Source: Oceanispirochaeta sp.
GTDB lineage: Bacteria; Spirochaetota; Spirochaetia; DSM-2461
Assembly (NCBI GenBank): GCA_963666275.2
Contig: CAXXOA010000001.1
Coordinates: 128,001-192,000, forward strand
Length of the DNA: 64,000 nucleotides
Direction of reading: 5' to 3'
Under the pieces are notes generated by a model. The model searched no databases. It was given only the letters and a program-made list of their open reading frames with translations, and was not told the DNA's origin. The position numbers and the translations under genes are program-made. Below, piece by piece: positions 945 through 20,908 of the stretch (positions within the stretch are counted from its first letter, which is position 1; each line of letters starts with the position of its first letter).

Positions 945-1070
945 AAATAGAAGGTTCAGAACCAACTGTACTTTTTTAGTTTTTCAAGGGACCGAGGGGG
1001 ACTCGCCATCCCTGGCCAGTTGCGCGGCAGGGATTCGCGCTGTAATACCGTTCTTATTGCTTATAAAATA
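945..1070 (-). repeat. degenerate tRNA-linked structured repeat unit downstream of tRNA-Cys
   Basis: 1020-1040 TTGCGCGGCAGGGATTCGCGC matches the tRNA-Met repeat core TTGCGCTCCAGGTATTCGCGC at 18/21; the unit ends in a degenerate copy of the tRNA-Cys 3' end plus an A-rich tail. Confidence 0.6.
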
Positions 1071-1100
1071 AAAAAGTCCAGCCTGAGCTGAACTTTTTTG
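1071..1100 (-). terminator. intrinsic terminator of tRNA-Cys
   Basis: AAAAAGTCCAGC-CTGA-GCTGAACTTTTT hairpin with A/T tracts. Confidence 0.7.
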
Positions 1101-17464: not shown

Positions 17465-18667
17465 ATGAAAAAAATACGTGTTATTACAGTTTGTCTTTTC
17501 TTTCTCTCTTTTGCCCTGAATGCGGAAGTCCTGCGGGAACTTCAGGTGGAGGGACTGAATAAAACCAGGATCTCTACTGTGAAGGGGATCATCGGTTATG
17601 ATATCGGGGACCAGATCGATAAGGCCGGGAAAGAGGATATCCGGCAGAATCTCCTGAAGTCGGGACTCTTTATAAATGAAACAATTAAGGTGGATCTTAC
17701 AACAAGCGGTGACGATGCCTATCTGAGAATATCTCTTCATGACAGGATCACCCTTCTGCCCATTCCCATAGCCAGTGTGAGCGACGGCAGCTACAGCGGA
17801 GGCCTTTTTGTCATGGACAGGAATTTTCTGGGGCTGGGGCATCAGCTGTTTGCCGGGGGGATGATCAGTTCGGATGACAGAATGTTTATGCTGGGCTACA
17901 CAAATCCCTCGCTGAAAAGGAGTGCTTTTCAGGCGGGAGGCAGTATGAGTGCTTTTATGGCGGATGAAACAGTGACAGATATCAGCGGAAAGGATGATCT
18001 GGCCGAATATGAATACCAGACTGTGAGCGGAGGGATCTCTGCCGGCTGGGAATCCGGTTCCATACGCCTGGGGCTGCAGTCCAGGGTGTATTTTCTGGAT
18101 GTTTCTTTTTCCGATCAGGATGCTTTTGTGTTTCATCCCGAAGTATCAGCGGAATACAGCAACTTATATTATGATACCTACTTCGATAGGGGTGTGAAAG
18201 CGTCGCTCTCCTATGGGATTGACAGCTATACGGATGTATTTGATTTTACCCAGACGGCAGAGGCTCAAATCTCCTACCATCACCTGCTGCATCCGAAATG
18301 GCAGGTTCAGTTCAATGGAGATATGGCAATTTCAGAAGGAGATCCTCTTCAGTCTCTCTCCCTGGGCCAGGGCTCCTGCGGCTCCATTCTTCCTGATACT
18401 GTTCTGGCTGACCGGTTTGTACAGGGAAATCTCAAGCTGATGTATGCGGCTCTGGATTTTTCCTGGGGATACATTGCCGTTCCTATGGCCTATCAGGTGG
18501 GGATCCTGGATGGGATGAGCGGAGACAATGCGTTCTATCACGGGCCTTCAGCAGGAGTGTCTCTCTATCTGAAAAAGGTTGCGATTCCGGCTATGTCCAT
18601 TCAGTATGCTTCAAATATAGAGACAGGGAAGGGGCTTTTTTCCTTCAGTATAGGAATGGAGATGTAA
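17465..18667 (+). CDS. single-POTRA outer-membrane beta-barrel protein (Omp85-like)
   Basis: Signal peptide, V.GL.KTR...L..SGLF POTRA-like segment, DRNFLGLGH, alternating beta-strand pattern, C-terminal FSFSIGMEM. Confidence 0.7.
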   Translation: MKKIRVITVCLFFLSFALNAEVLRELQVEGLNKTRISTVKGIIGYDIGDQIDKAGKEDIRQNLLKSGLFINETIKVDLTTSGDDAYLRISLHDRITLLPIPIASVSDGSYSGGLFVMDRNFLGLGHQLFAGGMISSDDRMFMLGYTNPSLKRSAFQAGGSMSAFMADETVTDISGKDDLAEYEYQTVSGGISAGWESGSIRLGLQSRVYFLDVSFSDQDAFVFHPEVSAEYSNLYYDTYFDRGVKASLSYGIDSYTDVFDFTQTAEAQISYHHLLHPKWQVQFNGDMAISEGDPLQSLSLGQGSCGSILPDTVLADRFVQGNLKLMYAALDFSWGYIAVPMAYQVGILDGMSGDNAFYHGPSAGVSLYLKKVAIPAMSIQYASNIETGKGLFSFSIGMEM

Positions 18668-18696
18668 TTTTCCTTTCTAGTTGTGTATGAAAAAGA

Positions 18697-19131
18697 GGTT
18701 ATAAAAGCTAAAGGGACCCTTGCGGATCCCTTTGGTTTTCTCTTTTTAGCAGGGGTAGGACTCCTGTCCAGTCATTGGATCGTGCCGATTCCTTCCCAGC
18801 CGGCTTCATAGACTAAATCGACGTCCTGTCGATTTGCGCTCCAGGTATTCGCGCCGTCTATTCCGCTTCGAGTCCTACCCCGTAAATTGGTTATAAAAGC
18901 TAAAGGGACCCTTGCGGATCCCTTTGGTTTTTTCTTTTTAGCAGGGGTAGGACTCCTGTCCAGTCATCGGCATCGTGCCGATTCCTTCCCAGCCGGCTTC
19001 ATAGACTAAATCGACGTCCTGTCGATTTGCGCTCCAGGTATTCGCGCCGTCTATTCCGCTTCGAGTCCTACCCCGTAAATTGGTTATAAAAGCTAAAGGG
19101 ACCCTTGCGGATCCCTTTGGTTTTTTCTTTT
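18697..19131 (-). repeat. tandem tRNA-linked repeat array A (2 units of 192-193 bp, 3 terminator copies)
   Basis: GGTTATAAAAGCTAAAGGG recurs at 18697, 18889, 19082; each unit has the tRNA-Met 3' 17 nt and an inverted 15-nt copy. Confidence 0.95.
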
Positions 19132-19204
19132 TAGCAGGGGTAGGACTCGAACCTACGGCCTTCGGGTTATGAGCCCGACGAGCTGCCAACTGCTCCACCC
19201 TGCG
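19132..19204 (-). tRNA. initiator tRNA-fMet(CAT), copy 1
   Basis: CGCAGGGTGGAGCAGTTGG...GGG-CTCATAA-CCC...GGTTCGAGTCC; unpaired C1 and 3 G-C pairs in the anticodon stem; own TTGACG/TATATT promoter. Confidence 0.97.
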
Positions 19205-19577
19205 TCGTGTGTCACATGAATATATAGATAATAGGAATTCTCGTCAAGAGAAAGTTTGAAAAAAGTTTTTTCTGCTGATGAAAGAGAGATCTAAATGCAT
19301 ATTCAGATTAAAATTAAACAATAAAAAAAGTGCGACTCCCCTGCTTCAGGAAAGTGCACTGATTCTGTTCTGTGAAGACAGATTACTTGACTATCGTATC
19401 AACATACAGTCTGTGGAGGCATTGTTGCTTTCATCATCATTCATATCATCATTCTCTGAAAACACATGGGTGTCATAAGAAACAAGATTCCCATCTTCAA
19501 AATAATTATTTTTGCTGTTATGTGATGATGAAGAAAAACCCCGGTCCCTGAACGGAGCCGAAGGGCTCTCTGTTTTT

Positions 19578-20072
19578 ATTATAAAAAGCAAAAGGGACCC
19601 TTGCGGATCCCTTTGATTTTTTGTTTTTAGCAGGGGCTTATTTTATGGTTTCGGCAAAGGAATTGCAGACTCGCTTTTATTCGTCGGCATCGTGCCTCCT
19701 CATAAAAGCCGTCTCCGGGGTATTCGGCCATCCCTGGCCTCAGCGCTCCAGTGGAGATCGTTCCTCGGTGCCCTGCGGTACGACTCCTTTTCGCGCAAAC
19801 CCCTCCGCTTCGAGTCCTACCCCTGGGGTTGGTTCTAAAAGCAAAAGGGACCCTTGCGGATCCCTTTGTTTTTTTGTTTTTAGCAGGGGTAGGACTCCTG
19901 TCCAGTCATCGGCATCGTGCCGATTCCTTCCCAGCCGGCTTGATAGACTAAATCGACGTCCTGTCGATTTGCGCTCCAGGTATTCGCGCCGTCTATTCCG
20001 CTTCGAGTCCTACCCCGTAAATTGGTTATAAAAGCAAAAGGGACCCTTGCGGATCCCTTTGTTTTTTGTTTT
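19578..20072 (-). repeat. tandem tRNA-linked repeat array B (one ~250 bp variant unit, one ~190 bp unit, 3 terminator copies)
   Basis: AAAGGGACCCTTGCGGATCCCTTTG hairpin x3; unit 19881-20016 nearly identical to array A units; 19628-19825 has a different interior. Confidence 0.93.
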
Positions 20073-20145
20073 TAGCAGGGGTAGGACTCGAACCTACGGC
20101 CTTCGGGTTATGAGCCCGACGAGCTGCCAACTGCTCCACCCTGCG
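20073..20145 (-). tRNA. initiator tRNA-fMet(CAT), copy 2
   Basis: Identical to 19132-19204; own TTGACT promoter upstream. Confidence 0.97.
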
Positions 20146-20206
20146 TCGTGTCTGGAGAGGGTATAGGTTTCGGCATTTTTAGTCAAGGGTTCTGAGTTTT
20201 TTCTTT

Positions 20207-20908
20207 TCAGGACCGGAAAAACCGGTGGTCTTCGTCGATCGCTCCCTGCAGTACTTTTTTGGCATGAAAAAAGAGCACCACAAGGAGGGGGAGGCTCAGC
20301 CAGGCAAGGGGGCCGCCATAAAAGAGAAAGAAATCATACAGTCCATGGTAAAGAACCGCCAGAAAGAGCCCCAGAGGGATGAGGGGAAGATTATCCATTT
20401 TGGCTTTGCCTATGTAATATCCCATCAGGCCGGAAGTCAGGCCGTGAAGAGGCACGGCGGTAACCCCTCTTGTGAGAAGCACGGCAATGGAGTTGTAACT
20501 GTTCATGCTGTATATGATATTTTCCAGAAAGGCAAATCCCAGACCTGCTGCCATGGTGTATATGATTCCGTCGGTCACCTCATCGAACTCCGGATGAGGG
20601 TAGATATACCTTTTGACGACAAAGAGTTTACAGCTCTCTTCCACAAGGCCGGCTACAATAAAGGCCCGGAAGGCAATGAGCATTAGGGGAGACAGGCCGT
20701 AAGGGGTCATCCTGCCCAGCATCAGTTCAATGATGATAGCCGGTATGGTGGAGAGGATCCCCAGGAAGAATGCTTTCATGACGATGCGTCCGGGTTCCGG
20801 CCGGGGATCTCTTTTATAGAAATAGTTCAGAAGCAGGAGCGCAGGAATCAGAGCGAGGAGGAAACTGATTACCTGCGGGAGCAGGAGCAGGTAAAGGAGA
20901 AAAGTCAT
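20207..20908 (-). CDS. prsW: PrsW family intramembrane metalloprotease
   Basis: D..PEP, EExxK (EESCK), GLGFA..EN..Y, R..TAVP.H, HGLYD. Confidence 0.9.
   Translation of the reverse strand: MTFLLYLLLLPQVISFLLALIPALLLLNYFYKRDPRPEPGRIVMKAFFLGILSTIPAIIIELMLGRMTPYGLSPLMLIAFRAFIVAGLVEESCKLFVVKRYIYPHPEFDEVTDGIIYTMAAGLGFAFLENIIYSMNSYNSIAVLLTRGVTAVPLHGLTSGLMGYYIGKAKMDNLPLIPLGLFLAVLYHGLYDFFLFYGGPLAWLSLPLLVVLFFHAKKVLQGAIDEDHRFFRS

Follow-up and report, generated by a model that had tools for sequence, protein, structure and literature searches.

A spirochaete family of tRNA-linked repeats with antisense arms matched to their host tRNA genes

The repeats that follow two identical tRNA-fMet genes of Oceanispirochaeta sp. 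belong to a spirochaete family of tRNA-linked repeats (TLRs), in which units standing behind many types of tRNA gene carry a mirror arm matched to the host. The TLR layout itself is already known from E. coli. The units are likely selfish DNA copied in at the tRNA T-loop by an enzyme for which the landing site is the likely template of the arm and of the duplicated tail and trailer; taken as a whole, we hold this reading to be narrowly probable. Its directly observed parts are the layout, the host-matched arm, a nearly fixed junction at C56, a trailer specific to each locus, the presence and absence of units between relatives, and an insertion of unit length outside tRNA genes. Coordinates, unless stated otherwise, are those of the window, i.e., the whole stretch of 64,000 nt that was analyzed (positions 128,001 to 192,000 of contig CAXXOA010000001.1, assembly GCA_963666275.2).

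Both tRNA-Met(CAT) genes are 73 nt long, lie on the minus strand, and do not encode CCA. We take them to be of the initiator type, as the first pair is mismatched and three G-C pairs close the anticodon stem (read from the sequence); the other two CAT tRNA genes of the genome differ from this pair. As the initial annotation had described, each gene is followed by a terminator, a unit, a terminator, a second unit, and a terminator, and one terminator hairpin is present in six copies across the array (18697–20145). Three of the four units are near-identical and form 193-nt periods that differ from each other at 2 to 6 of 193 nt. Each of these comprises a 15-nt arm antisense to tRNA positions 54–68, a core of approximately 105 nt, and a 17-nt tail copy of positions 57–73, again without CCA; all three arms and all three tail copies were found exactly where the annotation had placed them (Table 1). 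The uniformity that it had ascribed to the units holds for these three and fails for the second unit behind gene 1 (19628–19825), which has a 17-nt arm that had not been listed, only a 9-nt remnant of the tail, and two inserts, a 33-nt mini-element within the core and another of 31 nt within the tail. These inserts disrupt what is otherwise an ordinary unit, whose core is of a different lineage from those of the other window units. The two internal hairpins exist but had been written on the plus strand; seen from the tRNA strand, their loops are AGGAC and ACGAT, and the last unit has a damaged second hairpin (18774–18789). Open reading frames over the repeats are apparently short chance frames, and a search of Rfam over positions 18400–20400 matched the tRNAs alone.

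Table 1. Features of the tRNA-fMet arrays and of the decayed tRNA-Cys member (window coordinates)
Feature	Position	Strand	Evidence
tRNA-fMet gene 1 (host/target)	20073..20145	-	tRNA call and sequence
Terminator-like hairpin copy 1 (locus-specific trailer)	20037..20060	-	hairpin search
Unit 1 antisense arm, complementary to tRNA positions 54-68	20002..20016	-	sequence match
Unit 1 folded core; hairpins 19950-19970 (AGGAC loop) and 19908-19924 (ACGAT loop)	19897..20006	-	covariance model 118.8 bits, near-identical to seed
Unit 1 forward copy of tRNA positions 57-73	19881..19897	-	sequence match
Terminator-like hairpin copy 2	19844..19867	-	hairpin search
Unit 2 antisense arm, 17 nt, positions 54-70	19809..19825	-	sequence match
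Unit 2 core, different lineage; mini-element 19754-19786, tail insert 19637-19667	19637..19808	-	covariance model 36.2 bits
Unit 2 tail-copy remnant, 9 nt	19628..19636	-	sequence match
Terminator-like hairpin copy 3	19591..19614	-	hairpin search
Sigma-70-like promoter match before tRNA-fMet gene 2	19219..19247	-	consensus only, 10/12; 2 found vs 1.8 expected
tRNA-fMet gene 2 (host/target)	19132..19204	-	tRNA call and sequence
Terminator-like hairpin copy 4	19095..19118	-	hairpin search
Unit 3 antisense arm	19060..19074	-	sequence match
Unit 3 folded core	18955..19064	-	covariance model seed sequence
Unit 3 forward tail copy	18939..18955	-	sequence match
Terminator-like hairpin copy 5	18902..18925	-	hairpin search
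Unit 4 antisense arm	18867..18881	-	sequence match
Unit 4 folded core, second hairpin damaged	18763..18871	-	covariance model and fold
Unit 4 forward tail copy	18747..18763	-	sequence match
Terminator-like hairpin copy 6, array end	18710..18733	-	hairpin search
Decayed family member behind tRNA-Cys (1108-1181)	993..1056	-	covariance model 19.7 bits, E 0.0006 in 68 kb

The annotation had named an assembly artefact as one outcome that would undo its reading, and on present evidence such an artefact is rejected. In two runs of one sample, which may itself be the source of the assembly, the unit unitig had depths of 25.8 and 15.2, approximately twice the unique depth (11–14 and 5–6 for the adjoining unique pieces; 7.5 and 8.0 for the upstream flank unitig). 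The unique junctions of the array are tiled by unitigs, with no single piece spanning it, and homologous units are present in relatives. Other small repeats occur in the same region. The mini-element of unit 2 is one of a kind of 33–39 nt with conserved ends, also seen in a 16S-23S rRNA spacer and in another repeat array (G000 C1 ~2461030–2461063 and C2 ~1940261–1940293, respectively), and positions 19548–19563 (minus strand) hold one copy of a short REP-like repeat that occurs dozens of times genome-wide, often in tandem.

In the predicted fold of the three alike units, the arm is paired to the tail over 12 bp and the core is branched (z -5.2 to -6.7; equal stability in 0 of 200 shuffles). 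This bears out the long stem proposed in the annotation, and one 193-nt period is predicted to fold as a closed dumbbell. The proposed check by covariation also came out in favor of a conserved fold. A covariance model was built on the core alone from 16 seeds; when 50 sequences, including a few seeds, were aligned to it, 93% of cells were paired, compared to 30–41% in slid controls, the alignment itself being fitted to the model, and double changes were found at 16 of 17 pairs. Changes in the stems were double in 294 and single in 16 of 820 cells. The seed alignment shows two further stems, and the two conserved loops share the pattern CA(N)1-3GA(N)G. Many RNAs show more single-sided stem changes; their rarity here would fit hairpins formed at the DNA level or correction by template switching. 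In 150 of 159 cases the tRNA strand of the core gives the better fold, a preference that would suit an RNA role and that base composition may explain.

A folded core of approximately 110 nt stands behind 8 tRNA/tmRNA genes of the genome, as found by BLAST and by a model-free search for arms and tails over all 62 tRNA/tmRNA genes, so the further loci that the annotation proposed to look for do exist. Beyond tRNA-fMet, the hosts are tRNA-Gly(CCC), a second tRNA-CAT, tmRNA, tRNA-Asp (two units), tRNA-Gly(GCC), and tRNA-Leu(CAG), and each arm matches its own gene. The core model finds 11 copies in the genome, in addition to the decayed one behind the tRNA-Cys gene of the window. It matches 34 of 38 genomes of the same family, 19 of 41 genomes of a second family, and, under stricter filters, 9 of 141 genomes drawn across the phylum; the named carriers, e.g., Oceanispirochaeta, Alkalispirochaeta, and Salinispira, all belong to Spirochaetia/Spirochaetales. 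In other phyla, a pattern search of genome contigs gave 79 matches, of which the non-spirochaete ones scored at most 20 bits with the model and the two inspected were coding sequence. Three exact-pattern scans of viral contigs, which divergent cores would escape, gave five matches, none of them a unit (four had no model score and one was judged coding by eye).

A total of 190 cores was collected after removal of duplicates, partial hits, and three chance matches; they are a part of all hits, i.e., the best loci of each search together with 60 chosen regions of other genomes, and are biased toward tRNA-Met through the first query. A tRNA/tmRNA gene lies on the same strand within 1 kb upstream of 161 of these cores, and 29 types of such genes are represented, each arm fitting its own tRNA, so that the special link to initiator tRNA claimed at the outset was not borne out. 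The remaining cores are mostly from cut loci, inner copies of arrays, or tRNA fragments, with three beside IS-like ends and others in a MITE of one genome, discussed below. Copy number ranges from 1 to more than 20 per genome, many copies are truncated or damaged, and both numbers and sites change quickly between genomes. A single tRNA gene is followed by two units in the window and by up to ten in G020, where a tandem array with a 180-bp period lies behind tRNA-Met (L337, C1 ~565300–567100). Kinship among the 110-nt cores was judged by counting nearest neighbors instead of by a tree: the nearest core stood at the same tRNA in another genome in 15 of 65 cases (~7% expected) and in the same genome in 12 of 65 (~6% expected). 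By these counts, cores are kept in some lineages.

Several further observations were made around these loci. The decayed tRNA-Cys unit (960–1100, minus strand) carries a degenerate copy of the tail, together with a second hairpin of the terminator type. Behind the tmRNA unit (G000 C1 ~1548200–1548350; L187) lie short direct repeats, resembling integrase arm sites, and a RES-Xre toxin-antitoxin pair, which suggests a separate island. A second tRNA-Gly(GCC) gene (G000 C2 975024–974880, minus strand) has a 15-nt tail copy 138 nt downstream, with an unrelated insert between and no model match. An atypical tRNA call (Leu-GAG, 75 nt; G000 C1 1764491–1764690) is followed approximately 100 nt downstream by a second T-arm-like sequence, and a palindromic repeat array of another family lies away from any tRNA gene (G000 C2 ~1940100–1940600).

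The antisense arm tracks the local tRNA. Among 134 distinct pairs, namely those of the 161 loci with a findable anchor, the mean unbroken antisense run between the arm and the local tRNA was 10.6 nt, compared to 4.9 nt for shuffled pairs, and the maximum of 3000 shuffles was 5.7 nt. In an earlier subset, in which 73 of 101 pairs were kept (11 had no anchor and 17 were mis-anchored or duplicate rows), the variable tRNA positions 57, 59, and 63 agreed in 66, 64, and 56 of 73 pairs, with 36, 33, and 23 expected. The arm loci are related, so these counts are not of independent events; kinship is nevertheless insufficient as a cause, because arms match different tRNAs inside one genome. Furthermore, where four relatives carry one-base variants of tRNA-fMet, the arm carries the matching variant.

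The template of the arm is likely to be the tRNA gene. Arms are ragged in length (3–19 nt), and in 6 of 134 pairs the arm extends at least 4 nt (4–8 nt) into the 5′ strand of the T-stem, with 1.3 expected (P = 0.0002); in five of these six the tail copy does not extend so far, and the gene is thus the likely source. At nine listed positions where the tail copy and the tRNA differ, the arm sides with the tRNA in five and with the tail copy in three, and at one locus (L045) the arm fits the tail copy and not the present tRNA. These cases indicated that arms are not continually re-copied.

Other evidence bears on which part of a unit travels. Of 51 tail copies, 32 begin at C56 and 9 at G57 (41 of 51 together), and an exact copy of tRNA positions 59–72 is present in 74 of 111 first units. 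By automatic assignment, with a few cases visibly misplaced, these 111 comprise 37 without an exact tail copy, 31 with a tail and an unrelated trailer, 17 with a duplicated trailer, 8 that stop at a repeated arm, 15 with a partial or divergent second core, and 3 unclassified. In 31 of 75 loci, the trailer that separates tRNA and arm recurs behind the final copy with an identity of at least 75%, whereas trailers taken from different tRNAs within a genome resemble each other no more than background (0.54 vs 0.53). Inside tRNA operons the trailer can be a plain spacer lacking a terminator. Different cores stand behind one trailer within single arrays, as in units 1 and 2 of the window and in the tRNA-Asp units. 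In a relative of the same genus (L009), the syntenic site has the trailer and an arm without a core; several relatives have no unit, and relatives lack units at tRNA-fMet. As the terminator is specific to the locus, probably only the core travels, the landing site being the template for tail, trailer, and arm. Collectively, these observations point to the core as the mobile part, with flanks that would be written locally. Import of whole units also fits, given the unrelated trailers in 31 of 74 classifiable arrays. An array of a different kind was seen in L079 (G016 C1 ~1746600–1747200), where the spaces between four cores behind tRNA-Met are filled by palindromes made of a foreign tRNA-like tail and contain no terminators.

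A core has also inserted outside tRNA genes, in one lineage. In genome G024, approximately 22 of 34 model hits form one class scoring above 50 bits; none of the 19 copies inspected is at a tRNA 3′ end, and 14 of them were matched to a complete MITE bounded by terminal inverted repeats (TIRs). The MITE has an empty allele of 161 bp and a filled allele of 286 bp, and the extra 125 bp are one core together with a mini hairpin that has an arm complementary to flanking bases of the MITE itself. The units themselves are not MITEs, a candidate that was rejected, for their inverted ends vary with each tRNA instead of being fixed, element-encoded TIRs, and the core is a passenger in the G024 MITE. This MITE family has approximately 140 copies in G024 (TIR counts 140 and 140; L057, L060–L077, L293–L322), with interiors of 140, 161, and 286 bp. 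It is also found in G020, G011, and G016, the core having been captured by a subset, and no autonomous parent was found among 30 TIR loci.

The annotation had described a non-autonomous, tRNA-targeting element without a nearby enzyme, and the search for an enzyme supports this. Among 123 downstream ORFs (at least 110 aa, at most two per locus, within 0.5–1.5 kb on the downstream side only), no partner gene was recurring or of recombinase type, and there was no tyrosine integrase, Y1 HUH nuclease, or reverse transcriptase; the ORFs belong to scattered families and include four unrelated types of DDE transposase. Genome-wide, there are 10 integrase, 7 Y1-transposase, and 12 reverse-transcriptase matches, each more than 130 kb away from any unit. 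Many of the twelve reverse-transcriptase matches are near-identical, and they are clustered (G000 C1 1038–1061 kb, C2 1177 kb, and C3 188–275 kb).

Copying from the landing site could proceed in three steps. First, a newly made DNA strand that extends beyond the tRNA gene and the trailer would fold back and copy the T-arm backwards, giving the antisense arm. Second, at the universal letters of the T-loop, the strand would switch to a donor core. Third, at the end of the core, it would return to C56, and tail and trailer would be copied again. Arrays could then arise from repeated copy-in or from unequal recombination between tail copies. We propose that the host tolerates such insertions because the tRNA gene and its terminator are left intact, and RNA made by read-through, with its CsrA-type loops, could be a side effect or take on a co-opted role. 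Counted against copy-in are that no enzyme was found, that no circular or excised form was seen, that arms are not continually re-copied, that the unrelated trailers also fit import of whole units, that some lineages keep their cores, that the tRNA strand mostly gives the better fold, and that the MITE case comes from one lineage.

A role of the RNA could instead be the main reason why units are kept. Read-through RNA would be cut at the tRNA-like tail, and its GGA loops would titrate CsrA in step with tRNA synthesis, in the manner of E. coli RrA, RrB, and RrF; this is compatible with mobility, and we regard it as unlikely. Among 188 distinct cores, counting only loops that match the pattern, the first loop contains GGA in 156 of 176 cases and the second in 89 of 158, and PMC8668096 gives the CsrA consensus as RUACARGGAUGU. 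Both conserved loops thus resemble CsrA sites, which points to a possible second role of the units, and unit loops are candidate RNA antagonists of CsrA in spirochaetes. The same source reports no csrB or csrC homologues in Leptospira and one CsrA-related ncRNA in L. biflexa. The csrA gene is present in this genome and in 8 of 8 more distant unit-bearing genomes tested, and 20 csrA-less spirochaete genomes yielded no tRNA-linked unit (three weak model hits, none at a tRNA; matches to a loose pattern were chance or tRNA matches). The strong covariation of the core would also suit this role, as would the precedent of RrB, a TLR with the same CAGGACG hairpin, which PMC8144298 describes as transcribed and as binding CsrA through GGA loops.

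Other results argue against keeping as RNA. The second loop lacks GGA in 44% of cases, being mostly of a CACGA type, and this includes the window units, of which the three alike ones have one GGA loop each. Most sampled spirochaetes that carry csrA also lack the family, as shown by the 9 carriers among 141 genomes, so its absence from csrA-less genomes says little. Units turn over fast, and many copies are damaged. In PMC8144298, the 19 E. coli TLRs in tRNA operons score below 0.01 as CsrA binders. Finally, an RNA role leaves the re-matching of the arm to each tRNA unexplained.

Units may alternatively be inserted whole, as a circle of approximately 190 bp (tail, trailer, arm, and core) placed at tRNA 3′ ends by a tyrosine integrase acting in trans, possibly on a folded single strand that rebuilds the att site. 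Tyrosine-integrase islands are recognized by a tRNA followed by a displaced 3′ fragment (PMC4383910), the 193-nt period would form the closed dumbbell, 10 integrase-family matches exist in the genome, and the unrelated trailers would fit. A trailer borne by the element should, however, be shared among the tRNAs of a genome, which is not seen, and a single lineage of integrase would not suit 29 tRNA/tmRNA types whose arms are matched. With no integrase among the downstream ORFs scanned and no core in the three pattern scans of viral contigs, insertion of such circles seems quite improbable.

It is very improbable, in our judgment, that no dedicated enzyme is involved and that units arise passively, by template switching in replication and by recombination at tRNA ends, aided by the core hairpins and by microhomology in the T-loop. 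The lack of a partner gene, the ragged arm lengths, and the ragged array ends (the 8 that stop at an arm and the 15 with a partial core) would all be expected of such a process, but the junction is sharp, at C56 or G57, and conservation of two loop motifs and of a multi-stem fold across families suggests recognition by a protein. Least credible of all is the annotation's suggestion that the unit RNA would mimic a tRNA or regulate initiator tRNA in antisense. If a read-through transcript is folded at equilibrium, its first arm is predicted to pair with the T-arm/acceptor strand of the tRNA and break the cloverleaf, but a terminator sits between the tRNA and the arm, the arm of a free unit would be occupied by a tail copy that lacks T54-T55 and has no T-loop, the predicted stem ending at position 68 and leaving 5 nt unpaired, so that mimicry of an acceptor and T-arm domain is rejected on the modeled fold, and the family is not restricted to initiator tRNA, has arms down to 3–8 nt, and is missing at tRNA-fMet in relatives.

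We therefore return to copy-in at the T-loop as the preferred reading. If an enzyme does the copying, the units would represent a site-specific insertion system that is retargeted by copying its target. The spirochaete family offers natural experiments for such questions, with arms that track one-base tRNA variants, with empty, arm-only, and filled sites, and with a dated MITE insertion, and the spread of TLRs becomes testable as to which parts derive from the donor and which from the target. A broader proposal, which we advance tentatively and consider rather doubtful, is that TLRs across bacteria are a class of minimal mobile DNA, in which a core of approximately 110 nt writes a guide arm from the tRNA of its landing site by way of a host or foreign enzyme, with CsrA-type loops co-opted in spirochaetes as decoys coupled to growth rate.

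Several known systems share features with the units. The ends of IS200/IS605, PATEs, and REP/RAYT are, like the units, gene-less hairpin DNA that could choose its site by base pairing, but they insert without target duplication. The spirochaete units show a duplication of 17 to approximately 90 bp, and the downstream ORFs scanned beside them include no Y1 nuclease. Tyrosine-integrase islands at tRNA/tmRNA genes (Islander, PMC4383910) are marked by a tRNA and a displaced 3′ fragment, with crossovers in the T-loop or at the junction of T-stem and acceptor. The units are similar in having a restored gene with a displaced 3′ fragment, a crossover in the T-loop region, and tandem arrays; unlike islands, which span 2–200 kb and have an integrase, they are approximately 190 bp long with no integrase, a host-matched arm, and a duplicated trailer of the host locus. 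The displaced fragment was found as in an island, but no integrase was found in or beside the units, and an integrase island was rejected as the identity of the unit.

The closest likeness is to the TLRs of E. coli. These are said to have been known since 1978, from work by Egan and Landy, and were reportedly also treated by Rudd in 1999, both as cited in PMC8144298. In the literature within reach, largely without subscription papers, nothing was found on an antisense arm or on spirochaete units, and the term "tRNA-linked repeats" appeared only in PMC8144298 and an editorial. In E. coli there are 22 copies at ten loci, including the 178-bp repeats of tyrT-tyrV and RtT/rttR (Rfam RF00391); TLRs have no genes and number one to five at a locus. 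PMC8144298 defines them by a 3′ end of 18–19 bp identical to that of the upstream tRNA or rRNA, with no known function; expressed RtT-family RNAs are reported from Actinobacillus in PMC4986893. On sequence grounds, the spirochaete units are TLRs by this definition, and their core is not detectably homologous to the E. coli core. RF00391 had no match in the genome at E up to 10, none in the window included, so membership in the RtT family was rejected; the spirochaete model gives at most 11 bits on E. coli TLRs, with weak hits at the right places and only a CGGCCCG-AGG-like motif shared.

Like the spirochaete units, RrA, RrB, and RrF lie between two terminators and have a closing stem onto the repeated 3′ end, wobble-rich in their case, and a CAGGACG hairpin before the tail copy. 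According to PMC8144298, RrA, RrB, and RrF are processed, fixed, and conserved in Enterobacterales, and bind Hfq and CsrA; the spirochaete units instead turn over among many tRNA genes. On the DNA of E. coli K-12, the comparison with tyrT repeats made in the annotation was upheld in layout, but the antisense copy is not, as had been thought, an addition over E. coli: an arm of at least 8 nt stands behind 4 of 9 tRNA genes examined (tyrV, tyrT, lysQ, and argV), and lysT, lysZ, argQ, argZ, and proK have none of that length. The rtT and rrB units close arm-on-tail, whereas the lysQ fragment does not. The tail of E. coli TLRs is the last 17–19 nt of the gene and starts in the T-loop (58–59), where that of the spirochaete units mostly starts at C56. 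The K-12 proK array ends in a duplicated terminator and a truncated core, an ending common to many spirochaete arrays, and in both groups the repeats stand just behind a tRNA or stable-RNA gene, on the same strand, in tandem, and without genes of their own.
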